The notes under the pieces were generated by a model. It saw only the letters and a program-made list of their open reading frames with translations. It was not told the DNA's origin and did no database searches. The translations under genes and the position numbers were made by a program. DNA of 64,000 nucleotides from Candidatus Porifericomitaceae bacterium (GTDB taxonomy: Bacteria > Pseudomonadota > Gammaproteobacteria > Porifericomitales > Porifericomitaceae): NCBI GenBank assembly GCA_965212005.1, contig OZ243038.1:2193432-2257431 (forward strand). The letters run 5' to 3'. Shown here piece by piece: positions 2,668 to 17,592 of the stretch. Each line of letters begins with the position of its first letter. The stretch's first letter is position 1.

Positions 2668-4215
2668 GTGCACCGGCGGTCGGGGGCGCGGGTTTGCTCG
2701 CGCCGAGGCCCAGCCAGAAATACCCTGTGCTGGATCCTGTCGTTGTTGCCGGCGCTGCTGTACCTGCCTTGGGTGTCCGGCTGTACCGTGCCGCCCGATG
2801 CGACCATCCGTTTCGGCATCCCTGTCGCCCCGTTGACTTTGGACCCGCGCCGCAGCAGCAGTGCCGCCTCCGAGCGGATTGGCCAACTGCTCTACCGCGC
2901 CTTAGTGCGTTTTAATGCGCAGTATCAGCCGGTCCCGGACCTGGCTGACTGGGAGCAAATGGACCGTAGACACTATCGCTTCACGCTGGGCGATGCCGGG
3001 CGTCGCTTTCACGATGGAAGCCGCCTGGTCGCTGCCGACGTAAAAGCGACCTACGACTGGATACTGGATCCGGACAACGGTTCCGTAAAGAGGGGTGCGC
3101 TGGATTCCATCGAGCGGGTCGAGACGGCGGGAAAGGACGTGGTCGACTTTTTTCTGCGCCGCCCGGATGCGCTGTTTCCTGCTCACCTGACGGTGGGCAT
3201 CGTGCCGGCGGCTCTGATCGCCGCCGGGCACGTGCTGGATGATCAGCCGATGGGCAGCGGGCCGTTTCGCTTTCTCGCCCGGCAGGCAGATGACACCCTG
3301 TCGCTGCTGCGCGTGAAGGATGGGCAGCGGGTCGATTTTGTCGTCGTGAAGGAGCCTGTGGTGCGCGTGCTTAAACTGGTCCGCGGCGAGCTGGATTTGA
3401 TCCAGGGCGAAGTTCCCTACGAAATGCGCGCCTGGCTGGAGCGGCATCCGCAAGTGCGCGTGCAAAGCCGCCCCGGTAACGTCTATACTTACGTGGGCTT
3501 TCATTTACAGCATCCGCTGTTGCGTAACTTGCTGGTGCGGCAGGCGATTTCTTATGCCTTGGACCGGGACGCGATCATTCGCTACATGATGCACGGAGAA
3601 GCGGAGAAGGCCGACTCGATGATGCCATCGGGCCACTGGCTGAAACACCCTGCGTTGCCGGAATATGAGTATGATCCGCCACGCGCGCGGCGCTTGCTGC
3701 AGCAGGCCGGATACTACGACGGCCCCAGGCCTGCGCTGGAGTACAAGACTTCCGGCAATCCTTTCCGCATCCGCCTGGCGACCGTGATCCAGCATCAGTT
3801 GGCCGAGGTTGGGCTGCAGGTGCGGCTGCGCCCGCTTGAATGGGGCACTTTTTTCGGCGACGTCCGCGAGGGACGCTTTCAACTCTACAGCTTGTCCTGG
3901 GTAGGCATTAAACTGCCCGATATTTACCGTCGTGTCTTTCACAGCGAGTCAGTACCGCCAGCGGGTGCCAACCGCGGACGCTACGCCGATGCCACCGTTG
4001 ATCGTTTGATCGATGAAGCCGAGCAGGCACGGAACGAGACCTCGCGGCGCAGCGCCTACCTGCAATTGCAGGAGCATCTGCATCAGCAATTGCCCTACGT
4101 CCCTTTATGGCACGAACACTACGTGTTGGCACTGCGTTCCGAGATCATCGGCTACCAGTTGGATGCGGAGGGAAGCTACCGCGGGCTGAGCGAAATTTAC
4201 CGGGAAGCGCAGTGA
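2668..4215 (+). CDS. ABC transporter substrate-binding protein, family 5 (peptide/nickel/opine-type, DppA/OppA-like), lipoprotein-type signal peptide
   Basis: 575-aa ORF with SBP_bac_5-like architecture. N-terminal LLPALLYLPWVSGC lipobox. GTG 2668 proposed as start; the ORF frame is open from 2488. Confidence 0.75.
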   Translation: MHRRSGARVCSRRGPARNTLCWILSLLPALLYLPWVSGCTVPPDATIRFGIPVAPLTLDPRRSSSAASERIGQLLYRALVRFNAQYQPVPDLADWEQMDRRHYRFTLGDAGRRFHDGSRLVAADVKATYDWILDPDNGSVKRGALDSIERVETAGKDVVDFFLRRPDALFPAHLTVGIVPAALIAAGHVLDDQPMGSGPFRFLARQADDTLSLLRVKDGQRVDFVVVKEPVVRVLKLVRGELDLIQGEVPYEMRAWLERHPQVRVQSRPGNVYTYVGFHLQHPLLRNLLVRQAISYALDRDAIIRYMMHGEAEKADSMMPSGHWLKHPALPEYEYDPPRARRLLQQAGYYDGPRPALEYKTSGNPFRIRLATVIQHQLAEVGLQVRLRPLEWGTFFGDVREGRFQLYSLSWVGIKLPDIYRRVFHSESVPPAGANRGRYADATVDRLIDEAEQARNETSRRSAYLQLQEHLHQQLPYVPLWHEHYVLALRSEIIGYQLDAEGSYRGLSEIYREAQ

Positions 4216-5419: not shown

Positions 5420-5872
5420 ATGATCGGCAGATATGGCTTGATATGCGCCGTTTTGGCATTGTTTCTGGGGGCAGGAGGGTGGTATGTGCTGGGTCCGGCA
5501 AAACTTGGGCGTGCGCCGGTGCCCGCCCCGCTGGCTGTTTCCGATTCCTCTGCCAGCGCTCCTGGCGATTCCGCCGCATCACCTTTTATAGGGCCGTCCG
5601 CTTCGAGCCCGGTCGCTTCCGGTGCGCCCGCACTTTTGTATCCGCAAAGCCCGGAAGAGCTGACGGGCATGAAGAGGCGTGCCGATCGGCTGATTGAAGA
5701 GACCGATGACTGGTTGAGCACCCTGCCGCCGTTACCCGGAGCAGGGACCGCCGCCGCTCCTGCTCCTGTCCTCAGCGATGAGGAATTTGAGCGCCGTCAG
5801 CTTGCCGTGAGCAACAAGGCGGCCCGCTTGCAGGAGCGTGCCGGGTCAGGCTCGCAGGAGGCCGGACCGTGA
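5420..5872 (+). CDS. Hypothetical membrane-anchored protein with Pro/Ala/Ser-rich low-complexity region
   Basis: N-terminal TM helix (LICAVLALFLGAGGWYVL) then PAS-rich linker. No recognisable domain. The start is uncertain. Confidence 0.35.
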   Translation: MIGRYGLICAVLALFLGAGGWYVLGPAKLGRAPVPAPLAVSDSSASAPGDSAASPFIGPSASSPVASGAPALLYPQSPEELTGMKRRADRLIEETDDWLSTLPPLPGAGTAAAPAPVLSDEEFERRQLAVSNKAARLQERAGSGSQEAGP

Positions 5873-5948
5873 TGTATCACCGCCGCTGGCGCCGTCTGTG
5901 CGGCTGGTTGTGCCATTGGGCCATGTTGGCGCCATTAGGGGTTGGCGG

Positions 5949-6395
5949 ATGAACATTATAAAAAAACGATTGTTGCTGGCCATACTTGCCATATTTGTAT
6001 TGTTTGGAACAGCGTCCTGCAGTTATCCCTTTTACATGAAAGCATCAGGTAGTTTGGATCATTCAATTTTGTTCCAGTTTTTCAAAGAGGAAAATGATGA
6101 AAAGCCATCGAAATTCGATATTACTGTGTTTACAGTTTATGGACAGACAGCCGATGCTCAATGGATCCCCATATGGCGTCTCATTGGCGGCCAGACTCTG
6201 AGTAGTATTGAGTACGGTATAAATATACAGTATAAGGGGCTTACTGAAATCGTGCCGCATAAACCACTCGCAAAGGGTAAGCAATATGAAGCGGTTGCGG
6301 CAGGTTCAGTATGGCCTAAGCCAGGGTTGGGACACGCGAGAATTGATTTCTTTTTTGATGAAGGAGGCAATTTGATTCAGGGCAGTATCAAGTAA
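5949..6395 (+). CDS. Small secreted/lipoprotein, cassette copy 1 (148 aa; MNIIKKRLLLAILAIFVLFGTASC...)
   Basis: Signal peptide with Cys at +1 region (..FGTASC). AGGGG RBS 9 nt upstream of ATG. Four paralogous copies in tandem. Confidence 0.65.
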   Translation: MNIIKKRLLLAILAIFVLFGTASCSYPFYMKASGSLDHSILFQFFKEENDEKPSKFDITVFTVYGQTADAQWIPIWRLIGGQTLSSIEYGINIQYKGLTEIVPHKPLAKGKQYEAVAAGSVWPKPGLGHARIDFFFDEGGNLIQGSIK

Positions 6396-6445
6396 TCATT
6401 ATGCCTCCAAGAACCGGCTGGTTGTTACATCTGCATGTTTAAGGA

Positions 6446-6958
6446 TTGCCCTCAGCGTTCCCTCCGGCATATCCCCGGGATGGTTGGGAATGGTCGTGTA
6501 TTTATAATGCAGCCGCTGCTTCGCGACGGGCAAGCGGCAGAGCTTTAACTGCGGATGAAATAGAGTTGCTAGAGGGGGAGGGGGTCAGTTTCGATGGGTT
6601 AGATGTTTCGAAGGTGCGGATTATCAACGGAAAATATATTCCGTTTCAGAATCGTCCCATGGCTCCGGATGGCTATATCTACTGGCCGGGTGAGTGCGGT
6701 AACTTAGCATCATGCGGTGGAGTAGGTACGGCAAGAACTTTCATCCATGAAATGACACATGTTTGGCAACACCAGCAGGGTGTCAACGTGCTCGGTAGAG
6801 GGTTCCTGCTCCAGGCTGCAAGGGGTTTGAGCCTCGGTCTTTTTGATCCATACAGCCTTAAGGGATACGATCCCAACGGTCCCAACCTACCCTTCAACAT
6901 CGAGCAGGAGGCCGAAGTAAAGAGACTCGAGTATATAAGATGGAAGAAATCTCAATGA
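6446..6958 (+). CDS. HExxH metallopeptidase-motif protein, DUF4157-like (HEMTHVWQHQ), cassette copy 1
   Basis: GKYIPFQNRPMAPDGYIYWPG...TFIHEMTHVWQHQ matches the DUF4157 pattern (HExxHvxQ) from memory. TTG start; no signal peptide. Confidence 0.55.
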   Translation: MPSAFPPAYPRDGWEWSCIYNAAAASRRASGRALTADEIELLEGEGVSFDGLDVSKVRIINGKYIPFQNRPMAPDGYIYWPGECGNLASCGGVGTARTFIHEMTHVWQHQQGVNVLGRGFLLQAARGLSLGLFDPYSLKGYDPNGPNLPFNIEQEAEVKRLEYIRWKKSQ

Positions 6959-6985
6959 TGAAAACAATATCGTAGGGGTTGGCGG

Positions 6986-7423
6986 ATGAACATTATAAAA
7001 AAACGATTGTTGCTGGCCATACTTGCCATATTTGTATTGTTTGGAGCGTCCTGCAGTTATTCATTTTCCATGAAAGTATCAGGTAATTTGGATCATTCAA
7101 TTTTGTTCCAGTTTTTCAAAGAGGAAAATGATGAAAAGCCATCGAAATTCGATATTACTGGGTTTACAGTTTATAGACATACAGCCGATGCTCAATGGAT
7201 CGTCATATGGGATCTAATTGGCAGCCAGACTCTGAGCAGTATTGAGTACGGTATAAAGTATAAGGGGCTTACTGAAATCGTGCCGCATAAACCACTCGCA
7301 AAGGGTAAGCAATATGAAGCGATTGCGGAAGGTTCAGTCTGGCCTCGAGGGCCGACGGGGAGCGCGGGAATTGTTTTCTTTTTTGATGAAGGAGGCAATT
7401 TGATTCAGGGCTGGATCAAGTAA
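6986..7423 (+). CDS. Small secreted/lipoprotein, cassette copy 2 (145 aa)
   Basis: Paralog of 5949-6395 with substitutions clustered in the C-terminal third. Confidence 0.65.
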   Translation: MNIIKKRLLLAILAIFVLFGASCSYSFSMKVSGNLDHSILFQFFKEENDEKPSKFDITGFTVYRHTADAQWIVIWDLIGSQTLSSIEYGIKYKGLTEIVPHKPLAKGKQYEAIAEGSVWPRGPTGSAGIVFFFDEGGNLIQGWIK

Positions 7424-7473
7424 TCATTATGCTTCCAAGAACCGGCTGGTTGTTACATCTGCATGTTTAAGGA

Positions 7474-7989
7474 TTGCCCTCAGCGTTCCCTCCGGCATAT
7501 CCCCGGGATGGTTGGGAATGGTCGTGTATTTATAATGCAGCCGCTGCTTCGCGACGGGCAAGCGGCAGAGCTTTAACTGCGGATGAAGTAAAGGTGGCAA
7601 AGGAGGTCTTTGACAATAAGATCGATTATTCGAAGGTGCGGATTATCGACGGAAAATATATTCCGTTTCAGAATCGTCCCATGGCTCCGGATGGCTATAT
7701 CTACTGGCCGGGTGAGTGCGGTAACTTAGCATCATGCGGTGAAGTAGATACGGCAGACACTTTCATCCATGAAATGACACATGTTTGGCAACACCAGCAT
7801 GGTGTCAACGTGCTCGGTAGAGGGTTCCTGCTCCAGGCTGCAAGGGGTTTGAGCCTCGGTCTTTTTGATCCATACAGCCTTAAGGGATACGATTCCAAAA
7901 AAGCCTTCAGCTCCTACAATATCGAGCAGCAGGGCCAAATAGCGGTAGGCATCTATCGTGGCCATTATCCAAACAACATCAACTACTGA
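7474..7989 (+). CDS. HExxH/DUF4157-like protein, cassette copy 2 (distinct N-linker and C-terminus)
   Basis: Same HEMTHVWQHQ core. Differs from copy 1 at ADEVKVAKEVFDNKIDYS and in the C-terminal 35 aa. Confidence 0.55.
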   Translation: MPSAFPPAYPRDGWEWSCIYNAAAASRRASGRALTADEVKVAKEVFDNKIDYSKVRIIDGKYIPFQNRPMAPDGYIYWPGECGNLASCGEVDTADTFIHEMTHVWQHQHGVNVLGRGFLLQAARGLSLGLFDPYSLKGYDSKKAFSSYNIEQQGQIAVGIYRGHYPNNINY

Positions 7990-8005
7990 TGCTAGGGGTT
8001 GGCGG

Positions 8006-8443
8006 ATGAACATCATAAAAAAACGATTGTTGCTGGCCATACTTACCATATTTGTATTGTTTGGAACAGCGTCCTGCAGTTATCCCTTTTACATGAAAGC
8101 ATCAGGTAGCTTGGATCATTCAATTTTGTTCCGGTTTTTCAAAGAGAAAAATGATGAAAAGCCATCGAAATTCAAGATTAATATATTTATAGTTCAGGAA
8201 CAGACAGCCGATGCTCAATGGATCGTCATATGGCATCTACAAGGCAGCCAGACTCTGAGCAGTATTGAGTACGGTATAAAGTATAAGGGGCTTGCTGAAA
8301 TCGTGCCGCATAAACCACTCGCAAAGGGTAAGCAATATCGAGCATATGCAAATGGTTCAGTATGGCCTGGAAGGGGGGGGAGCGCGGTAACTGATTTCTT
8401 TTTTGATGAAGGAGGCAATTTGATTCAGGGCAGTATCAAGTAA
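8006..8443 (+). CDS. Small secreted/lipoprotein, cassette copy 3 (145 aa)
   Basis: MNIIKKRLLLAILTIFVLFGTASC... The ORF frame is open from 7958, but a conserved ATG/RBS lies at 8006. Confidence 0.65.
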   Translation: MNIIKKRLLLAILTIFVLFGTASCSYPFYMKASGSLDHSILFRFFKEKNDEKPSKFKINIFIVQEQTADAQWIVIWHLQGSQTLSSIEYGIKYKGLAEIVPHKPLAKGKQYRAYANGSVWPGRGGSAVTDFFFDEGGNLIQGSIK

Positions 8444-8472
8444 TCATTATGCCGCCAAGAACCGGCTGGTTA

Positions 8473-9034
8473 TTACATCTGCATGTTTAAGGATTGCCCT
8501 CAGCGTTCCCTCCGGCATATCCCCGGGATGGTTGGGAATGGTCGTGTATTTACAATGCAGCCGCTGCTTCGCGACGGGCAAGCGGCAGAGCTTTAACTGC
8601 GGATGAAGTGCGGCAGAGCTTTAACTGCGGATGAAATAGAGTTGCTAGAGGGGGAGGGGGTCAGTTTCGATGGGTTAGATGTTTCGAAGGTGCGGATTAT
8701 CAACGGAAAATATATTCCGTTTCAGAATCGTCCCATGGCTCCGGATGGCTATATCTACTGGCCGGGTGAGTGCGGTAACTTAGCATCATGCGGTGGAGTA
8801 GGTACGGCAAGAACTTTCATCCATGAAATGACACATGTTTGGCAACACCAGCAGGGTGTCAACGTGCTCGGTAGAGGGTTCCTGCTCCATGCTGCAAGGG
8901 TTTTGAGCCGCGATCTTTTTGATCCATACAGCCTTAAACACTACGATCCCAACGGTCCCAACCTACCCTTCAACATCGAGCAGGAGGCCCAAGTAAAGGT
9001 CCTCGAGTATATAAGATGGAAGGAATCTCAATGA
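8473..9034 (+). pseudogene. HExxH/DUF4157-like gene, cassette copy 3, N-terminal frame broken by a 28-bp internal duplication (possible restart at ATG 8603)
   Basis: gcggcagagctttaactgcggatgaa is duplicated at 8575-8632, shifting the conserved TTG-start leader out of frame. Downstream 143 codons are intact. Confidence 0.55.
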
Positions 9035-9061
9035 TGAAAACAATATCGTAGGGGTTGGCGG

Positions 9062-9499
9062 ATGAATATTATAAAAAAACGATTGTTGCTGGCCATACTT
9101 GCCATATTTGTATTGTTTGGAGCGTCCTGCAGTTATTCATTTTCCATGAAAGTATCAGGTAATTTGGATCATTCAATTTTGTTCCAGTTTTTCAAAGAGG
9201 AAAATGATGAAAAGCCATCGAAATTCGATATTACTGGGTTTACAGTTTATAGACATACAGCCGATGCTCAATGGATCGTCATATGGGATCTAATTGGCAG
9301 CCAGACTCTGAGCAGTATTGAGTACGGTATAAAGTATAAGGGGCTTACTGAGATCGTGCCGCATAAACCACTCGCAAAAGGTAAGCAATATGATGTTGTT
9401 GTGCACGGTTCAGTCTGGCCTCGAGGGCCGACGGGGGGCACGGGATTTGTTTTCTTTTTTGATGAAGGAGGCAATTTTATTCAGGGCTGGATCAAGTAA
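9062..9499 (+). CDS. Small secreted/lipoprotein, cassette copy 4 (145 aa)
   Basis: Nearly identical to copy 2. Confidence 0.65.
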   Translation: MNIIKKRLLLAILAIFVLFGASCSYSFSMKVSGNLDHSILFQFFKEENDEKPSKFDITGFTVYRHTADAQWIVIWDLIGSQTLSSIEYGIKYKGLTEIVPHKPLAKGKQYDVVVHGSVWPRGPTGGTGFVFFFDEGGNFIQGWIK

Positions 9500-9549: not shown

Positions 9550-9861
9550 TTGCCCTCAGCGTTCCCTCCGGCATATCCCCGGGATGGTTGGGAATGGTCG
9601 TGTATTTACAAGGATACGCCTAATTATAACCTCGTCGTTATAACAGAAGATGACGGTTACGCGGCGAGGATGTTCTACGTTAAGCCAGCGTTTGGAATTA
9701 AGGAAGGCACATAAGTATATTCTGGTCAAGTCATTGGCACATATCAAAATATAGGAGACAGAAAAGGGCATAGTGGGATCACAGAGCACGTTCATGTAGA
9801 AATTCGGCTCGAAGGTAAGTTATTATATCCCACAGACATCATTCCGATTCCTGAAAACTAG
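9550..9861 (+). pseudogene. Truncated 4th HExxH/DUF4157-like gene (first 20 codons) fused to a frameshifted M23 (LytM) peptidase 3' fragment
   Basis: LPSAFPPAYPRDGWEWSCIY then ...NLVVITEDDGYAARMFYVKPAFGIKEGT*. After a +1 shift: YSGQVIGTYQNIGDRKGHSGITEHVHVEIRLEGKLLYP (M23 HxH/GxxGxxGxT-like C-terminus). Ends 1 nt before the ATG at 9863. Confidence 0.6.
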
Positions 9862-9862
9862 C

Positions 9863-10516
9863 ATGCGCAGTTTAAGATCTTTGCTCCGATTGCTCGCCAG
9901 CAGCGTGATCATCATTCATTCCGCTTTTACGTGTGCTGCCGGCATGACTGATTGTGATGCTTTGGAACTGATTTCAGGTCACTCTGATTACAATTCGCTA
10001 GTCTGTGCTGGTGTTCAGAAAGTGGAAGAGCGAAAATATGAGGAAGCGATTTCTCTATTTGAGCAGGCCCTGGCTGTTCCGCTACGTGAGTGGTCTAACT
10101 TCCTGTTATTACCCCGGCTGGCTTTGGCACATCATCTGTCCGGCTCCGGACAAAAAGCGGAAAGCGTTTTGCTGAAAGCTGAGTTGACGTTGTCGGTATT
10201 TTTGGGTTTGATGACATGCGAACAGACGGAGACGGGTTACGTTGTTCGTCGAGCGTATGAAGATTATCTCACTGGCCAGGTGGGCAATGAGGTTGCAGCA
10301 ATTATGTGTGGCAATGAATATCATTACGTATCTGAGCGGGATACACTTGAACAAGTGCTGCTGGAAGCGAAGTTGATAGAGAATTATTTTGAGATCAAGC
10401 GGCAGATCGGCTTATCTGAAGGCGATGACTCCCAGGCTGCAGTGAGGCGTGGATTGCACGTCGGTGTCGGGGCAGGCCGTTATTGTTATAACAGGCGGCA
10501 TCATGGACAGGGTTAG
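9863..10516 (+). CDS. Secreted 217-aa protein, standalone paralog of the ankyrin protein N-terminal domain (copy 1)
   Basis: Signal peptide. Shares blocks DCDAxEL, YNSLVCxG, KYEEAIxxFEQAL, LLPRLALAHHLSGS, TLSVF, NYFEIKRQIG with the ankyrin protein N-domain. Confidence 0.6.
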   Translation: MRSLRSLLRLLASSVIIIHSAFTCAAGMTDCDALELISGHSDYNSLVCAGVQKVEERKYEEAISLFEQALAVPLREWSNFLLLPRLALAHHLSGSGQKAESVLLKAELTLSVFLGLMTCEQTETGYVVRRAYEDYLTGQVGNEVAAIMCGNEYHYVSERDTLEQVLLEAKLIENYFEIKRQIGLSEGDDSQAAVRRGLHVGVGAGRYCYNRRHHGQG

Positions 10517-10783
10517 TCTTCGATACAAAGATGCTCCATCGGATCGACTCACCAGTATAACCACGCGGAGGGGTTACGCGGTGGGGCAGCTTTACGTTAC
10601 TGCGGCACCTGGCATCCAGTCTGGAGTAAGCGCAGGGGCTGGTCAAGTTATTAGCACACGTCAAGGGCGGGGAGGCCGGCATCCTGGGAGCACAGAACGC
10701 GTTCCTGCAGAGCTTGCACATAACAGTCAGGTATGTGGAGGCCGGGGCGCTGATTTCGCTTCCGTAAGTAGCAGCCTGTACAA

Positions 10784-13549
10784 ATGAAGTCCTTGCTCTG
10801 GTGGCTGGTCGGCAGCGTTATTATTATTCATTCGGCTTTCGCGCATGCTGATGATGATAAGTTTGATTGTGATGCCTGGGAGCTTTTCGGGACAAGATTT
10901 GAGGGCTACGATTATTACAATTCGCTAGTCTGTTCTGGTATTAAGAACATGGAAAAGGGGCAATATGAGGAAGCCGTTGTCCAATTTGAGGAGGCCCTGA
11001 CTGTTCCGCTAAATGAATGGCCTAACTTTATGTTATTGCCCAGACTGGCTTTGGCCTATCATCTGTCCGGTTCCAGAGAAAAGGCAAAAAGAGTTCTGCT
11101 AAAAGCGAAGCGGACGCTGTCGGTATTTACTGGTTTGATTAAATGCGAAGTAAGAGATATCCCCACTTGGAGCGATTATATTATTATGCGCCAGGCAAAT
11201 GGTATTGCCCTCTCCTCCCGCGACGGAATGTGTGGTGAGATATATTTTCCATATTATGAGAGTAAGTCTCTTGGTGCAATGCGATATGATGCGAGGGTTG
11301 TAAAGAATTATTTTGAGATCAAGCGGCAGATGGGCTTTTCCACCCCCCTTCATGAGACGGCGCAAGAGGGGCGCACAGCAGTCATCCAGACGCTGATTGA
11401 GGCAGGTGCAGACGTCAATGTGGAAGATAGCGACGGCGAGACCCCGCTTCATAGGGCGGCCCGGGAAGGCCACACAGCAGTCGTCCAGACACTGATTCGG
11501 GCAGGTGCGGACGTCAATGCGAAGGATGGCGAGAGGAAGACCCCACTTCATGGGGCGGCGCGGGAAGGCGACACAGCAGTTATCCAGATGCTGATTGAGG
11601 CAGGTGCGGACGTCCATGCAAAGTACAGAGACGGTTCCCCGCTGCATGAGGCGGCATACAAAGGCCGCACAGAAGCCATCCGTATGCTGATTAAGGCAGG
11701 TGCGGACGTCAATGCAAGGACGTCGACTGACTACACCTCGCTTCATGGGGCGGCGTACAAGGGCTACCCGGAAACCGTCCGTATGCTGATTGAAGCAGGC
11801 GCAGACGTCAATGCGGAGGATATTTTATACGGTGAGACCCCGCTTCGTTTGGCGGCAAAAAAAGAACAAACAGAAGTCATCCGCATGCTGATTGAGGCAG
11901 GCGCGGACGTCAACATGGAGGCAATAGACGGGAGCACCTGGACTCCGCTTTACTGGGCGGTACAGGGGGGGCACATAGAAGTCATCAAGGTGCTGATTGA
12001 GGCAGGCGCGGATGTCAATGCAAGGTCCAGATACGGCGAGCCCCCGCTTCATGAGGCGGTCCGGGAAGGCCTGTCAGAAGGTGTTTCTGTGTTGATTGGG
12101 GCAGGCGCGGATGTCAATGCGAGAGATGGCCGCGGCGAGACCCCGCTTCATAATGCGGTATTGAGAGGCCGGTCAGAAAGTGTTTCTACGTTGATTGAGG
12201 CAGGTGCGGACGTCAATGCGAAGAATAACGAAGGCTGGACTCCGCTTTACTGGGCGGTACAGGAGGGGCGCATAGAAGTCATCCGCATGCTGATTGAGGC
12301 AGGCGCGGACGTCAACATGGAGGCAATAGACGGGAGCAACTGGACTTCGCTTTACTGGGCGGTACAGGAGGGGCACATAGAAGTCATCAAAGTGCTGATT
12401 GAGGCAGGCGTGGATGTCAATGCGACGTCCAGATACGGCGAGCCCCCGCTTCATGAGGCGGTCCGGGAAGGCCTGTCAGAAGGTGTTTTTGTGTTGATTG
12501 GGGCAGGTGCGGATGTCAATGCGAAAGACAGCCTCGGCGAGACCCCGCTTCGTTTGGCGGCAAAAACAGAACAAACAGAAGTCATCCGCATGCTGATTGA
12601 GGCAGGCGCAGACGTCAACATGGAGGCAATAGACGGGAGCAACTGGACTCCGCTTTACTGGGCGGTACAGGAGGGGGACATAGAAGCCATCCGCATGCTG
12701 ATTGAGGCAGGCGCGGATGTCAACGCAAGGTCCAGATACGGCGAGCCCCCGCTTCATGAGGCGGCCCGGGAAGGCCACAGAGCAGTCGTCCAGGCACTGA
12801 TTCGGGCAGGCGTGGATGTCAATGCGAAAGATAGCGGCGGCGAGACCCCGCTTCATGAGGTGGCACTGTCAGGCGATCCAGAACTTGTTGATGTGCTGAT
12901 TGAGGCAGGCGCGGATGTCAATGCAAGGTCCAGATACGGTGAGACCCCGCTTCATGAAGCGGTCCAGGAAGGCCACACAGCAGTCGTCCAGGCACTGATT
13001 CGGGCAGGCGTGGATGTGAATGCGAAAGATAGCGGTGGCGAGACCCTGCTTCATGAGGCGGCACTGTCTGGCGATCCAGAACTTGTTGATGTGCTGATTG
13101 AGGCAGGCGCGGATGTCAATGCGAAAGGTAGCAGCGGCGAGCCCCTGCTTCATGAGGCGGCCCGGGAAGGCCACACAGCAGTCGTCCGGGCACTGATTCG
13201 GGCAGGCGTGGATGTGAATGCGAAAGATAGCGGCGGCGAGACCCCGCTTCATGAGGCGGCATGGTCAGGCCTGTCAGAAGGTGTTTCTACGTTGATTGAG
13301 GCAGGTGCGGACGTCAATGCGAAGGATAACGAAGGCTGGACTCCGCTTCACAGGGCGGCACAGTCAGGCGAGCCAGAACTTGTTGATGTGCTGGTTGCCG
13401 CAGGCGCAGACGTGAATGCAAAGGATGCAGACGGAGACACGCCGTTGGATAAGACAAAATCCAAAATGGATCAAATGGATCGAAAAAATGAAGAATACGA
13501 TAAGTATCGGACAGTCGTTGACTTGCTGGATAGGGCAGGCGCAAGATAA
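10784..13549 (+). CDS. Secreted ankyrin-repeat protein, 921 aa (signal peptide + ~170-aa Cys-containing N-domain + ~21 ANK repeats + Lys/Asp-rich tail), copy 1
   Basis: Signal peptide ends IIIHSAFA|HADD. Repeats are 33 aa each, e.g. TPLHxAAxEGHTAVVQALIRAGADVNAKDxxGE. Confidence 0.85.
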   Translation: MKSLLWWLVGSVIIIHSAFAHADDDKFDCDAWELFGTRFEGYDYYNSLVCSGIKNMEKGQYEEAVVQFEEALTVPLNEWPNFMLLPRLALAYHLSGSREKAKRVLLKAKRTLSVFTGLIKCEVRDIPTWSDYIIMRQANGIALSSRDGMCGEIYFPYYESKSLGAMRYDARVVKNYFEIKRQMGFSTPLHETAQEGRTAVIQTLIEAGADVNVEDSDGETPLHRAAREGHTAVVQTLIRAGADVNAKDGERKTPLHGAAREGDTAVIQMLIEAGADVHAKYRDGSPLHEAAYKGRTEAIRMLIKAGADVNARTSTDYTSLHGAAYKGYPETVRMLIEAGADVNAEDILYGETPLRLAAKKEQTEVIRMLIEAGADVNMEAIDGSTWTPLYWAVQGGHIEVIKVLIEAGADVNARSRYGEPPLHEAVREGLSEGVSVLIGAGADVNARDGRGETPLHNAVLRGRSESVSTLIEAGADVNAKNNEGWTPLYWAVQEGRIEVIRMLIEAGADVNMEAIDGSNWTSLYWAVQEGHIEVIKVLIEAGVDVNATSRYGEPPLHEAVREGLSEGVFVLIGAGADVNAKDSLGETPLRLAAKTEQTEVIRMLIEAGADVNMEAIDGSNWTPLYWAVQEGDIEAIRMLIEAGADVNARSRYGEPPLHEAAREGHRAVVQALIRAGVDVNAKDSGGETPLHEVALSGDPELVDVLIEAGADVNARSRYGETPLHEAVQEGHTAVVQALIRAGVDVNAKDSGGETLLHEAALSGDPELVDVLIEAGADVNAKGSSGEPLLHEAAREGHTAVVRALIRAGVDVNAKDSGGETPLHEAAWSGLSEGVSTLIEAGADVNAKDNEGWTPLHRAAQSGEPELVDVLVAAGADVNAKDADGDTPLDKTKSKMDQMDRKNEEYDKYRTVVDLLDRAGAR

Positions 13550-13768
13550 TTGGGACTCGTCAGTGCCAGCCGGATAAGAACGTCCGGTCATGGATATGTC
13601 CTAACCGCCTTCGATGTCCGGAAAAACTGTTTTGCTTGCAAAGTCAAAGCGAGCAACGTTGGTTGCTAGCCGTTACGGCTAGATCGGCGCCAATCCACGT
13701 TGACAATGGCGAAGAGCGGCAGTAACTTTGAATAGTAGAAGGCTTTATGCCGATTCCTGAAAACTAGC

Positions 13769-14422
13769 ATGCGCAGTTCAAGATATTTGCTCCGATTGCT
13801 CGTCGGCAGCGTGATCATCATTCATTCCGCTTTTACGTGTGCTGCCGGCATGACTGATTGTGATGCTTTGGAACTGATTTCAGGTCACTCTGATTACAAT
13901 TCGCTAGTCTGTGCTGGTGTTCAGAAAGTGGAAGAGCGAAAATATGAGGAAGCGATTTCTCTATTTGAGCAGGCCCTGGCTGTTCCGCTACGTGAGTGGT
14001 CTAACTTCCTGTTATTACCCCGGCTGGCTTTGGCACATCATCTGTCCGGCTCCGGACAAAAAGCGGAAAGCGTTTTGCTGAAAGCTGAGTTGACGTTGTC
14101 GGTATTTGTGGGTTTGATGACATGCGAACAGACGGAGACGGGTTACGTTGTTCGTCGAGCGTATGAAGATTATCTCACTGGCCAGGTGGGCAATGAGGTT
14201 GCAGCAATTATGTGTGGCAATGAATATCATTACGTATCTGAGCGGGATACACTTGAACAAGTGCTGCTGGAAGCGAAGTTGATAGAGAATTATTTTGAGA
14301 TCAAGCGGCAGATCGGCTTATCTGAAGGCGATGACTCCCAGGCTGCAGTGAGGCGTGGATTGCACGTCGGTGTCGGGGCAGGCCGTTATTGTTATAACAG
14401 GCGGCATCATGGACAGGGTTAG
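13769..14422 (+). CDS. Secreted 217-aa N-domain paralog, copy 2
   Basis: About 98% identical to 9863-10516. Confidence 0.6.
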   Translation: MRSSRYLLRLLVGSVIIIHSAFTCAAGMTDCDALELISGHSDYNSLVCAGVQKVEERKYEEAISLFEQALAVPLREWSNFLLLPRLALAHHLSGSGQKAESVLLKAELTLSVFVGLMTCEQTETGYVVRRAYEDYLTGQVGNEVAAIMCGNEYHYVSERDTLEQVLLEAKLIENYFEIKRQIGLSEGDDSQAAVRRGLHVGVGAGRYCYNRRHHGQG

Positions 14423-14689
14423 TCTTCGATACAAAGATGCTCCATCTAATCGGCTCACCAGTATAACCACGCGGGGGGGTTACGCGGTGGGGCAGCGTAA
14501 CGTTACTGCGACGCCTGGAACTCAGTCTGGAGTAAGCGCAGGGGCTGGTCAAGTTATTAGCACACGTCAAGAGTGGGGAGGCCGGCATCCTGGGAGCACA
14601 GAACGCGTTCCTGCAGAGCTTGCACATAACAGTCAGGTATGTGGAGGCCGGGGCGCTGATTTCGCTTCCGTAAGTGGCAGCCTGTACAA

Positions 14690-16456
14690 ATGAAGTCCTT
14701 GCTCTGGTGGCTGGTCGGCAGCGTTATTATTATTCATTCGGCTTTCGCGCATGCTGATGATAAGTTGGATTGTGATGCCTGGGAGCTTTACGGGACAGGC
14801 TATCATTATTACAATTCGCTAGTCTGTTCTGGTATTAAGAACATGGAAAAGGGGCAATATGAGGAAGCCATTGTCCAATTTGAGGAGGCTCTGACTATTT
14901 GGATACATGAATGGCCTAACTTTATGTTATTGCCCAGACTGGCTTTGGCCTATCATCTGTCCGGTTCCAGAGAAAAGGCAAAAAGAGTTCTGCTAAAAGC
15001 GAAGCGGACGCTGTCGATACTTACTGGTTTGATTAAATGCGAAGAAAGAGATACCACCACTTTGAGAGATTATATTATTATGCGCCAGGCGAATGGTATT
15101 GCCCTCTCTGGAGACGACGTAATGTGTGGTTCGGTATTATATTTTCCATATTATGAGAGTAAGTCTCTTGGTGCAATGCGATATGATGCGAGGATTGTAA
15201 AGAATTATTTTGAGATCAAGCGGCAGATGGGCTTTTCCACCCCCCTTCATGAGACGGCGCAAGAGGGGCGCACAGCAGTCATCCAGACGCTGATTGAGGC
15301 AGGTGCAGACGTCAATGCGGAAGATAGCGACGGCGAGACCCCGCTTCATAGGGCGGCCCGGGAAGGCCACACAGCAGTCGTCCAGGCACTGATTCGGGCA
15401 GGCGCGGACGTCAATGCGAAGGATGGCGAGAGGAAGACCCCACTTCATGGGGCGGCGCGGGAAGGCGACACAGCAGTTATCCAGATGCTGATTGAGGCAG
15501 GTGCGGACGTCAATGCAAAGTACAGAGACGGCGGCTCCCCGCTGCATGAGGCGGCATACAAAGGCCGCACAGAAGCCATCCGTATGCTGATTAAGGCAGG
15601 TGCGGACGTCAATGCAAGTACGTCGACTGACTACACCCCGCTTCATGGGGCGGTGTACAAGGGCTACCCGGAAATCATCCGTATGCTGATTGAAGCAGGC
15701 GCGGACGTCAATGCGGCGGAGCGTTACTACGGTGAGACCTCGCTTCGTTTGGCGGCAAAAAAAGAACGAACAGAAGTCATCCGCATGCTGATTGAGGCAG
15801 GCGCGGACGTCAACATGGAGGCAATAGACGGGAGCAACTGGACTCCGCTTTACTGGGCGGTACAGGAGGGGCACATAGAAGTCATCAAGGTGCTGATTGG
15901 GGCAGGTGCGGATGTCAATGCAAGGTCCAGATACGGTGAGCCCCCGCTTCATGGGGCGGTCCAGAAAGGCCTGTCAGAAGGTGTTTCTGTGTTGATTGGG
16001 GCAGGCGCGGATGTCAATGCGAAAGATAGCCGCGGCGAGACCCCGCTTTATGAGGCGGCATTGAGAGGCCGGTCAGAAGGTATTTCTACGTTGATTGGGG
16101 CAGGTGCGGACGTCAATGCGAAGAATAACGAAGGCTGGACTCCTCTTCACAGGGCGGCACAGTCATGGTGGTCAGGCCTGTCAAAAGGTGTTTCTACGTT
16201 GATTGGGGCAGGTGCGGACGTCAATGCGAAGGATAACGAAGGCTGGACTCCGCTTCACAGGGCGGCACTGTCAGGCGATCCAGAACTTGTTGATGTGCTG
16301 GTTGCCGCAGGCGCAGACGTGAATGCAAAGGATGCAGACGGAGACACGCCGTTGGATAAGACAAAATCCAAAATGGATCAAATGGATCGAAAAAATGAAG
16401 AATACGATAAGTATCGGACAGTCGTTGACTTGCTGGATAGGGCAGGCGCAAGATAA
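14690..16456 (+). CDS. Secreted ankyrin-repeat protein, 588 aa, copy 2 (in-frame loss of ~11 ANK repeats, mosaic)
   Basis: Same N-domain and C-tail. The middle repeats are absent relative to copies 1 and 3. Junction region AAQSWWSGLSKGVSTL. Confidence 0.8.
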   Translation: MKSLLWWLVGSVIIIHSAFAHADDKLDCDAWELYGTGYHYYNSLVCSGIKNMEKGQYEEAIVQFEEALTIWIHEWPNFMLLPRLALAYHLSGSREKAKRVLLKAKRTLSILTGLIKCEERDTTTLRDYIIMRQANGIALSGDDVMCGSVLYFPYYESKSLGAMRYDARIVKNYFEIKRQMGFSTPLHETAQEGRTAVIQTLIEAGADVNAEDSDGETPLHRAAREGHTAVVQALIRAGADVNAKDGERKTPLHGAAREGDTAVIQMLIEAGADVNAKYRDGGSPLHEAAYKGRTEAIRMLIKAGADVNASTSTDYTPLHGAVYKGYPEIIRMLIEAGADVNAAERYYGETSLRLAAKKERTEVIRMLIEAGADVNMEAIDGSNWTPLYWAVQEGHIEVIKVLIGAGADVNARSRYGEPPLHGAVQKGLSEGVSVLIGAGADVNAKDSRGETPLYEAALRGRSEGISTLIGAGADVNAKNNEGWTPLHRAAQSWWSGLSKGVSTLIGAGADVNAKDNEGWTPLHRAALSGDPELVDVLVAAGADVNAKDADGDTPLDKTKSKMDQMDRKNEEYDKYRTVVDLLDRAGAR

Positions 16457-16674
16457 TTGGGACTCGTCAGTGCCAGCCGGATGAGAACGTCCGGTCATGG
16501 ATATGTCCTAACCGCCTTCGATGTCCGGAAAAACTGTTTTGCTTGCAAAGTCAAGCGAGCAACGTTGGTTGCTAGCCGTTACGGCTAGATCGGCGCCAAT
16601 CCACGTTGACAATGGCGAAGAGCGGCAGTAGCTTTGCATAGTAGAAGGCTTTATGCCGATTCCTGAAAACTAGC

Positions 16675-17328
16675 ATGCGCAGTTTAAGATCTTTGCTCCG
16701 ATTGCTCGCCAGCAGCGTGATCATCATTCATTCCGCTTTTACGTGTGCTGCCGGCATGACTGATTGTGATGCTTTGGAACTGATTTCAGGTCACTCTGAT
16801 TACAATTCGCTAGTCTGTGCTGGTGTTCAGAAAGTGGAAGAGCGAAAATATGAGGAAGCGATTTCTCTATTTGAGCAGGCCCTGGCTGTTCCGCTACGTG
16901 AGTGGTCTAACTTCCTGTTATTACCCCGGCTGGCTTTGGTACATCATCTGTCCGGCTCCGGACAAAAAGCGGAAAGCGTTTTGCTGAAAGCTGAGTTGAC
17001 GTTGTCGGTATTTGTGGGTTTGATGACATGCGAACAGACGGAGACGGGTTACGTTGTTCGTCGAGCGTATGAAGATTATCTCACTGGCCAGGTGGGCAAT
17101 GAGGTTGCAGCAATTATGTGTGGCAATGAATATCATTACGTATCTGAGCGGGATACACTTGAACAAGTGCTGCTGGAAGCGAAGTTGATAGAGAATTATT
17201 TTGAGATCAAGCGGCAGATCGGCTTATCTGAAGGCGATGACTCCCAGGCTGCAGTGAGGCGTGGATTGCACGTCGGTGTCGGGGCAGGCCGTTATTGTTA
17301 TAACAGGCGGCATCATGGACAGGGTTAG
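16675..17328 (+). CDS. Secreted 217-aa N-domain paralog, copy 3
   Basis: About 99% identical to copy 1. Confidence 0.6.
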   Translation: MRSLRSLLRLLASSVIIIHSAFTCAAGMTDCDALELISGHSDYNSLVCAGVQKVEERKYEEAISLFEQALAVPLREWSNFLLLPRLALVHHLSGSGQKAESVLLKAELTLSVFVGLMTCEQTETGYVVRRAYEDYLTGQVGNEVAAIMCGNEYHYVSERDTLEQVLLEAKLIENYFEIKRQIGLSEGDDSQAAVRRGLHVGVGAGRYCYNRRHHGQG

Positions 17329-17592
17329 TCTTCGATACGGAGATGCTCCATCGGATCGGCTCACCAGTATAACCACGGGGGGATACGCGGTGGGGCAGCT
17401 TTACGTTACTGCGGCGCCTGGAACTCAGTCTGGAGTTAGCGCAGGGGCTGGTCAAGTTATTAGCACACGTCAAGAGCGGGGAGGCCGGCATCCTGGGAGC
17501 ACAGAACGCGTTCCTGCAGAGCTTGCACATAACAGTCAGGTATGTGGAGGCCGGGGCGCTGATTTCGCTTCCGTAAGTAGCAGCCTGTACAA

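Follow-up and report, generated by a model that had tools for sequence, protein, structure and literature searches.

The DNA considered here is a 64,000-nucleotide (nt) stretch of contig OZ243038.1 from a Candidatus Porifericomitaceae bacterium (positions 2,193,432 to 2,257,431 of the forward strand; this whole stretch is referred to below as the window). The organism is a gammaproteobacterium that lacks a near species representative, its MetK being at most 70% identical to that of any of them. Our subject is an array of three tandem + strand cassettes within it, each of which consists of a gene for a 217-amino-acid (aa) partner protein followed by a gene for an ankyrin-repeat protein (Table 1). 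The GC (guanine plus cytosine) content across the region from 6 to 20 kb is 45–58%, compared with ~60% in the flanking DNA, and a scan of the repeat unit for promoters and terminators gave nothing over chance level. An earlier note on this DNA had observed that the ankyrin proteins differ from one another in patches of their N-terminal domain (N-domain), whilst the partners hardly vary at all, and had suggested diversifying selection or gene conversion on a binding surface. When the remnants of toxin genes described below are included, the order of elements in a cassette is psiM23-a, immunity a, psiM23-b and immunity b fused to ankyrin repeats, where psiM23 stands for a dead M23 remnant, and this order is found three times.

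Table 1. Coordinates of the cassette array, of the variable patches in ankyrin protein 1 and of the adjacent modules (positions in the window)
Feature	Coordinates	Strand	Remarks
Array of four lipoprotein genes and, in alternation, three VgrG2b-type HExxH effector domains	5838..9499	+	same island
Lipoprotein genes	5949-6395, 6986-7423, 8006-8443, 9062-9499	+	81-94% identical
HExxH proteins	6446-6958, 7474-7989, 8494/8603-9034	+	VgrG2b effector domain, PDB 6H56, E=1e-19
psiA: 20-aa handle plus C-terminal half of M23 toxin domain	9550..9855	+	handle LPSAFPPAYPRDGWEWSCIY at 9550-9609; M23 part at 9607-9852
Partner 1 (217 aa)	9863..10516	+	stand-alone immunity-family member, putative signal peptide, four conserved Cys; best match of the profile search
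psiB1: dead M23 toxin remnant	10434..10787	+	open reading frame 10449-10787; region implied to be a spacer in the earlier note
Ankyrin protein 1 (921 aa)	10784..13549	+	putative signal peptide, N-domain, ~21 ankyrin repeats, C-terminal tail
Putative signal peptide of ankyrin protein 1	10784-10849	+
Immunity-family N-domain of ankyrin protein 1	10850-11341	+
Patch 1 (aa 23-43)	10850..10912	+	two indels plus F/L, F/Y, D/H; predicted loop between Cys29 and Cys50
Patch 2 (aa 74-77: VPLN / IWIH / IPIF)	11003..11014	+	loop preceding the family E-x-PNF motif
Patches 3 and 4 (aa 123-153)	11150..11242	+	beta-hairpin tip and loop preceding the MCG motif; one indel
Patch 5 (aa 161-167: KSLGAMR vs QSLGERL)	11264..11284	+	odd one out is copy 3
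Inter-unit spacer	13550..13768	+	repeated at 16457-16674 with ~3 differences; final 28 bp retain toxin tail ...MPIPEN-stop
Partner 2 (217 aa)	13769..14422	+
psiB2: dead M23 toxin remnant	14340..14693	+	tblastn, alignment
Ankyrin protein 2 (588 aa)	14690..16456	+	same N-domain, 11 repeats, hybrid ninth repeat
Partner 3 (217 aa)	16675..17328	+
psiB3: dead M23 toxin remnant with 3-nt deletion	17246..17596	+	tblastn, alignment
Ankyrin protein 3 (918 aa)	17593..20349	+	N-domain nearest copy 2, ankyrin part nearest copy 1

The ankyrin repeats match the Pfam models Ank and Ank_2 above threshold (Ank_2: E=2e-202), with 21, 11 and 21 repeats in copies 1, 2 and 3 respectively, and all three long open reading frames (ORFs) are free of frameshifts and stops. 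Copy 2 is ~333 aa shorter than the others: its ninth repeat (16094-16200) is a hybrid of 36 residues (…NNEGWTPLHRAAQSWWSGLSKGVST) that joins repeat 9 to repeats 19-20, and it marks an internal deletion of ten repeats via inter-repeat recombination. Long antisense ORFs (126–271 aa) are also present on the - strand within the ankyrin repeats (11099-11746, 12476-13252, 15137-15952, 18082-18546 and 19276-20052); these share the ankyrin-repeat period and most likely arise simply from the composition of the repeats.

At 53% aa and 69% nt identity, the partner is paralogous to the first ~186 residues of the ankyrin proteins. Pfam and NCBIfam hold no model for this family and gave only sub-threshold tetratricopeptide repeat (TPR) matches for the N-domain, and a word-indexed homologue search with the N-domain returned the partner as the only match. 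An exhaustive search with a profile of N-domain plus partner yielded 264 representatives at E<=1e-3; 139 of them pass E<=1e-10, and the majority of these span most of the profile. Nearly all of these relatives are stand-alone proteins of ~185 aa whose N-terminus is hydrophobic or lipobox-like and which carry four invariant Cys residues, and the homology extends over the whole mature domain of ~165 aa, including the E-x-PNF...PRLA and MCG motifs; C29, C50, C121 and C150 are invariant in 35 sequences. As read by eye, the putative export signals are hydrophobic N-termini ending AHA|DD in the ankyrin proteins and lipobox-like endings (...SAC/SSC/SGC) in the relatives. The ankyrin proteins themselves are not in the protein collection searched, and none of the 150 best profile-search matches combines the full domain with ankyrin repeats in one protein. 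A search of the genome-contig collection with the family gave no match. Five sequences from one contig make up the 90% cluster of the partner, two of which (P0153 and P0154) are not encoded in the window: the source genome thus has at least two further partner-type proteins and hence more cassettes outside the window.

Using a 35-sequence alignment, AlphaFold predicted a domain of four TPR-like helices (43-115), a beta-hairpin (119-137) and two further helices, with a predicted local distance difference test score (pLDDT) of 81 and a predicted template modelling score (pTM) of 0.74; this run replaced one made with 6 sequences (pLDDT 56). In fold searches, solved structures matched the TPR part only, in a generic manner, and none covered the whole domain. 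The final ~31 residues of the partner (10421-10516, 14327-14422, 17233-17328) are without equivalent in the ~185-aa relatives: translation here passes out of frame through the toxin remnant that follows, and these residues constitute a junk tail that arose from the joining of a downstream module.

In polymorphic toxin systems, the small exported protein encoded right after an Rhs toxin domain is the cognate immunity protein. Gene order was compared at loci outside the window: of the 15 that were informative, 13 have the C-terminus of an M23-type toxin ending just upstream of the family gene. Full proteins with an RHS/YD shell and Peptidase_M23 (Pfam) are present among these neighbours (loci L004 and L008, with intact M23 C-termini at 6507-6923 and 5569-5985, respectively): family member P0007 begins 4 bp downstream of a YD-shell/RHS protein with terminal Peptidase_M23, P0011 begins 12 bp downstream of a 1117-aa RHS plus Peptidase_M23 protein, and P0004 and P0002 lie downstream of cut-off genes with the same M23-type domain at their end. 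A single outside locus (L092, homologue at 1511-2026) has ample upstream sequence yet no detectable M23 toxin; this homologue may be a true orphan or may be paired with a different toxin. At L004, which is a metagenome contig, a Rap1a-family immunity gene (3198-3593) lies near the Rhs-M23 toxin/immunity pair, which fits a mixed immunity neighbourhood. M23 enzymes cleave peptidoglycan, and an exported inhibitor fits toxins of this kind. Thus, judging from conserved gene order, the N-domain is probably an immunity domain, and the pairing of this family with Rhs-M23 toxins would be new; for the putative immunity proteins we infer a periplasmic location.

Toxin domains of this type are also found in the window, in a dead form. 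M23 remnants precede all six family genes, and each has lost catalytic residues or carries stops. The psiB remnants in front of the ankyrin genes are 35–43% identical to intact toxins over 94–101 aa; in case of psiB1, homology sets in at ~10434 and reaches 39–43% over 94–97 aa (tblastn, E 1e-15 to 1e-19). In the alignment, the histidine of the HxxxD motif is replaced and preceded by a stop, HxH reads RVP, and the psiB stop overlaps the start codon of the ankyrin gene (ATGA). A reading of 10517-10783 as a decayed ankyrin repeat (blastx E=7.6e-4) was rejected, as M23 C-termini match this segment far better. The second type of remnant precedes partner 1, and the spacers between the units retain the tail of this remnant: psiA is 48–49% identical to the Rhs-M23 toxin C-termini of L004 and L008 over 82 aa (tblastn, E ~1e-18), and the alignment reveals an in-frame stop, a retained HVH and the loss of the N-terminal half with HxxxD. 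The M23 tblastn search of the window matches these remnants only, and the large ORFs of the window are housekeeping genes (YhdP, TonB receptor, POT transporter, ThiC and similar). The locus is thus a triplicated orphan toxin/immunity cassette within a larger immunity island of T6SS type (T6SS, type VI secretion system).

With the genes so identified, the differences between the three ankyrin copies can be analysed. All of the divergent strings quoted in the earlier note are found in the ankyrin proteins, and its value of ~95% overall identity is correct for copies 1 and 3 (95.1%), while over alignable columns copies 1 and 2 (90.3%) and copies 2 and 3 (91.5%) fall below it. Concentration of the differences in the N-domain likewise depends on the pair that is compared: the density of non-synonymous changes in the N-domain relative to the rest of the gene is 5.0x for pair 1-3 (p=3e-8), a weaker 1.6x for pair 1-2 (p=0.09) and 0.67x for pair 2-3, where there is no excess. 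Codon comparison reveals that the N-domain differences are mostly non-synonymous: between codons 23 and 186, there are 25–26 non-synonymous and 4–5 synonymous changes that separate copy 1 from either of the others, and 12 and 2, respectively, between copies 2 and 3. The earlier note had named synonymous substitutions as a ground for refutation, and this is not what the codons show. The patchiness itself is real, with 40% of variable N-domain codons adjacent to another where 16% are expected (p=0.002, substitutions only); with indel codons included, the figures are 43% and 19% (p=0.0002–0.0006). In patches 3 and 4 copy 1 differs at 16 consecutive informative sites within 90 bp. However, adjacent codons cluster as strongly in the ankyrin repeats (28% where 11% would be expected, p=0.003), and such clustering is therefore not special to the N-domain.

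In order to judge how much of this divergence calls for selection, we used the dead toxin remnant psiB as a neutral benchmark and counted the sites that vary among the three copies. These make up 6/654 (0.9%) in the partner gene, 18/264 (6.8%) in psiB, 0/65 (0%) in the putative signal peptide, 36/481 (7.5%) in the N-domain, 66/1215 (5.4%) in the shared ankyrin part and 5/993 (0.5%) in the ankyrin part only found in copies 1 and 3. The near-invariance of the partners is thus genuine, whilst the contrast drawn in the earlier note between partner and N-domain is misleading, because the partner lies in a homogenised block. From the pairwise divergence of psiB (4.3–5.4%), ~7–8 synonymous differences would be expected over the ~155 synonymous sites of the partner and none is found (Poisson P ~1e-3 or less); the non-coding spacers that lie upstream of partners 2 and 3 also differ at only ~3/219 positions, and the partner-plus-spacer block as a whole has ~1.2% variable sites compared with 5.4–7.5% in psiB, N-domain and shared ankyrin blocks. 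Since identity at synonymous and intergenic sites is beyond the reach of purifying selection, partner invariance reflects recent homogenisation rather than constraint, and recent gene conversion or recent duplication of the partner block can account for it.

The remainder of the cassette is a mosaic. The copy that is the odd one out changes along the gene: it is copy 1 in 10850-11250 (22/29 informative sites), copy 3 in 11251-11600 (8/12), copy 2 in 11601-12270, covering repeats 4-9 (35/48), and copy 3 again in 13260-13549 (7/11). The switch between the 10850-11250 and 11601-12270 blocks is highly significant (Fisher p=4e-7); a runs test gave p<5e-5 per site and 0.10 after conservative merging of neighbouring sites. 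Such switches indicate recombination or gene conversion, and copy 3 is a recombinant with a copy-2-like N-domain and a copy-1-like ankyrin array. Near-identical blocks lie beside diverged ones and the topology changes along the alignment, as in a multigene family under concerted evolution. For two multi-site clusters in the ankyrin repeats, exact donors exist in other repeats; in case of the N-domain patches, there is no second copy within 4 mismatches and no donor in the window, although the further partner-type proteins outside it make unseen donors possible. Conversion from the partner gene was considered and rejected: polarising by the partner places derived states on both lineages, without any tract copied from it.

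In the N-domain, signs of constraint accompany the divergence. The ratio of non-synonymous to synonymous substitution rates (dN/dS) is 1.38, 1.83 and 1.65 for the three pairs (p=0.19–0.40), with ~1.2 for the whole gene. When neighbouring sites of the same pattern were merged by hand into events, N-domain (~5.4%) and psiB (~5.1%) were alike. Measured against 31 external family members, non-synonymous differences per non-synonymous site (pN) are 0.016–0.031 in conserved columns and 0.040–0.096 in variable ones. Highly conserved family columns hold only 1 of the 31 variable codons, as against 35 of 134 invariant codons (p=0.003), and the four Cys residues and the conserved motifs are untouched by differences between copies. 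Secondary-structure mapping onto the model with pLDDT 81 places variable codons preferentially in predicted loops (19/63 vs 11/101 elsewhere, p=0.003), so that the binding surface of the earlier note stays a plausible reading: a toxin-binding surface at the variable loops is plausible on the predicted fold. Changes in the ankyrin part touch every repeat position, framework residues among them, with no enrichment at canonical binding positions (odds ratio 1.3, p=0.55). Constraint on conserved columns and the preference for loops indicate that these genes are not free-running pseudogenes. The same data fit both neutral change where the fold tolerates it and positive selection on a surface.

Drawing on the observed homology, gene neighbourhood, toxin remnants, substitution statistics and mosaic structure, we consider it probable that the ankyrin proteins and the 217-aa partners are exported immunity paralogues whose near-neutral divergence has been reshuffled by recombination between copies. 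The family would normally act in the periplasm to neutralise a Peptidase_M23 (peptidoglycan endopeptidase) toxin delivered by Rhs. Differences in the N-domain would have built up at about the local neutral rate and would have been filtered by purifying selection, with the survivors mainly in loops and family-variable columns. Unequal crossing-over and gene conversion among the cassettes would then have produced the mosaic: partner block and spacers would have been homogenised recently, a near-identical ankyrin array would have become common to copies 1 and 3 and most of the N-domain common to copies 2 and 3, and the N-domain of copy 1 would have been left as the oldest tract. Thus, of the two alternatives proposed in the earlier note, the evidence supports conversion or recombination (the switch of the odd copy), whilst selection gains no significant support from dN/dS and psiB is equally diverged.

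Several observations weigh against this account. A 90-bp tract of copy 1 (11151-11240) is ~18% diverged compared with 4–5% in its flanks; it is the feature that simple drift explains least well, and it needs either selection or an unseen donor. Codon 77 encodes three different residues in the three copies, and family-variable columns change at 1.1–2.4x the pooled neutral proxy, which hints at something beyond drift. The putative immunity function is read from gene neighbourhood, and no rhs, vgrG, cdiA, T6SS core gene or intact toxin was found in the 64-kb window among the large ORFs checked or with the M23 tblastn search; a main rhs, vgrG or cdiA gene may lie elsewhere in the genome. Finally, three sequences give little statistical power in any direction.

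Diversifying selection on a toxin-contact surface, in which each N-domain neutralises a different incoming allele of the M23 toxin, is a possible explanation, if a rather unlikely one. Homogenisation would here be resisted in the N-domains, and the linked psiB would stay diverged through hitch-hiking. The dN/dS point estimates above 1 are in keeping with this, as are the rates in family-variable columns for copy 1 vs the others (1.6–2.4x the neutral proxy), the location of the changes in loops with avoidance of the conserved core, and a divergence peak inside the N-domain that adjoins fully homogenised DNA; elsewhere, orphan immunity genes are reported to gain non-synonymous changes at the effector interface (bioRxiv 10.1101/2025.05.03.651265). 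However, no test survives correction: only pair 1-3 reaches p=0.005, uncorrected, and in this value multi-nucleotide changes that lie in clusters count as independent. In event density, N-domain and psiB are about the same, in pair 2-3 the N-domain is less different than the rest of the gene, and the ankyrin repeats show the same short-range clustering. An extension of this idea, which we regard as tentative and on balance unlikely, is that the three N-domains form a maintained panel of distinct anti-M23-toxin specificities, with the ankyrin arrays as a second fused inhibitor or scaffold; selection would then act on the loop patches at aa 35-43, 74-77, 123-130, 145-153 and 161-167 amid concerted evolution elsewhere. 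If true, this would represent a type of periplasmic 'multi-immunity' protein that has not been described before.

The 11151-11240 tract could also stem from ectopic gene conversion, with the sharply diverged tracts of copy 1 copied from cassettes of the same genome outside the window. The two or more additional partner-type proteins, the step in divergence at the tract and the evident recombination among copies are all consistent with such an origin, which we nevertheless judge doubtful: for no N-domain cluster does the window contain a donor, and polarising with the partner as outgroup puts derived states on both lineages. Improbable, in our view, is decay, in which the toxins are dead, the cassettes are no longer needed and the ankyrin genes drift toward pseudogenes, the clusters being multi-nucleotide or indel-associated mutations. 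The whole-gene dN/dS, changes at ankyrin framework positions (e.g. P7S, H9Y, G27D), the large internal deletion in copy 2 and a low transition/transversion ratio in the N-domain (12:17) would agree with decay, but three long ORFs remain open, the putative signal peptide is invariant, and the four Cys residues and conserved motifs are intact with changes avoiding conserved columns. An assembly or polishing artefact in the tandem repeat, or targeted hypermutation of the diversity-generating retroelement type, is very improbable: whilst 3–4 kb tandem repeats are hard to assemble and the changes are clustered, the substitutions and in-frame indels leave every ORF open, the window contains no template copy of any patch (within 4 mismatches), every ORF of the island has another identity (no search aimed at a reverse transcriptase was made), and the changes involve all bases rather than being specific to adenine.

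Upstream of the cassettes, the same island contains an array (5838-9499) that probably comprises orphan T6SS metallopeptidase effector/lipoprotein immunity modules. The handle LPSAFPPAYPRDGWEWSCIY occurs four times (6446, 7474, 8494 and 9550): three copies head HExxH domains and the fourth is fused to the truncated M23 remnant, so that it looks like a shared recombination segment for the swapping of toxin modules. The third HExxH copy (8494-9034) is frameshifted near 8607, with the handle and the remaining protein in different frames. Among themselves, the lipoprotein copies differ most in a C-terminal patch (GSVWP + KPGLGHARID / RGPTGSAGIV / GRGGSAVTD / RGPTGGTGFV + FFF; 6300-6395, 7330-7423, 8350-8443 and 9400-9499), a patchiness like that of the ankyrin N-domain.

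With these assignments, three anonymous ankyrin proteins become readable as a putative orphan immunity array against a cell-wall-cutting Rhs toxin, and an unannotated candidate immunity family with ~260 representatives is obtained whose toxin partner can be named from gene order. The dead toxin fragments beside the immunity domains provide a built-in neutral control for distinguishing selection from drift and recombination, and our findings highlight that patchy amino-acid differences between tandem copies do not on their own point to selection. Were selection to be confirmed, this locus would serve as a compact model for how specificity evolves while the copies evolve in concert.

Polymorphic toxin systems are known for tandem orphan immunity genes, for polyimmunity loci and for displaced toxin C-termini that share recombination handles (PMC3482391, PMC5361080, PMC3150448, PMC3967940), examples being the immunity gene arrays of Vibrio cholerae (PMC5361080) and the Rhs orphan modules (PMC3150448, PMC3967940). 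As in polyimmunity loci and orphan modules, tandem immunity paralogues are found here, each preceded by a C-terminal toxin fragment without a delivery domain, and a short common 5' handle on several modules and a low-GC island are further features shared with polymorphic toxin loci. Unlike in these, all M23 pieces are dead and there is no main rhs or vgrG within 64 kb; the two-gene cassette is moreover tandemly triplicated and evolving in concert, and the immunity family is one without a Pfam or NCBIfam model. In the arrays of rAID orphan immunity genes from gut Bacteroidales, substitutions are reported to accumulate at the interface (bioRxiv 10.1101/2025.05.03.651265); in contrast, no recombinase was seen at the present locus, the predicted fold is TPR-like with four Cys rather than SUKH, and no test for selection survives correction. 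The N-domain also departs from TPR proteins in general, its matches lying below Pfam thresholds and its model adding a beta-hairpin, two helices and four invariant Cys residues. In case of the adjacent array, the closest comparison is the C-terminal metallopeptidase of VgrG2b, a T6SS toxin reported to act in the periplasm (PDB 6H56; PMC6899460): the HExxH proteins, each with a lipoprotein gene behind it, match this effector domain, but here the effector domains are detached from any VgrG, and the likeness concerns that array and not the ankyrin cassette. For the ankyrin proteins, a parallel is offered by Bd3460 of Bdellovibrio, which serves in self-protection from peptidoglycan DD-endopeptidases (PMC4686830), the likeness being that of an ankyrin-repeat protein as an inhibitor of cell-wall endopeptidases. 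Bd3460 is short and binds through its repeats, whereas here the immunity homology resides in the non-ankyrin N-domain and is accompanied by 11–21 repeats. Immunity domains fused to ankyrin repeats have been listed by Zhang et al. 2012 (PMC3482391); what is new here is the fusion of this immunity domain to 11–21 ankyrin repeats and its tandem triplication together with dead toxins.

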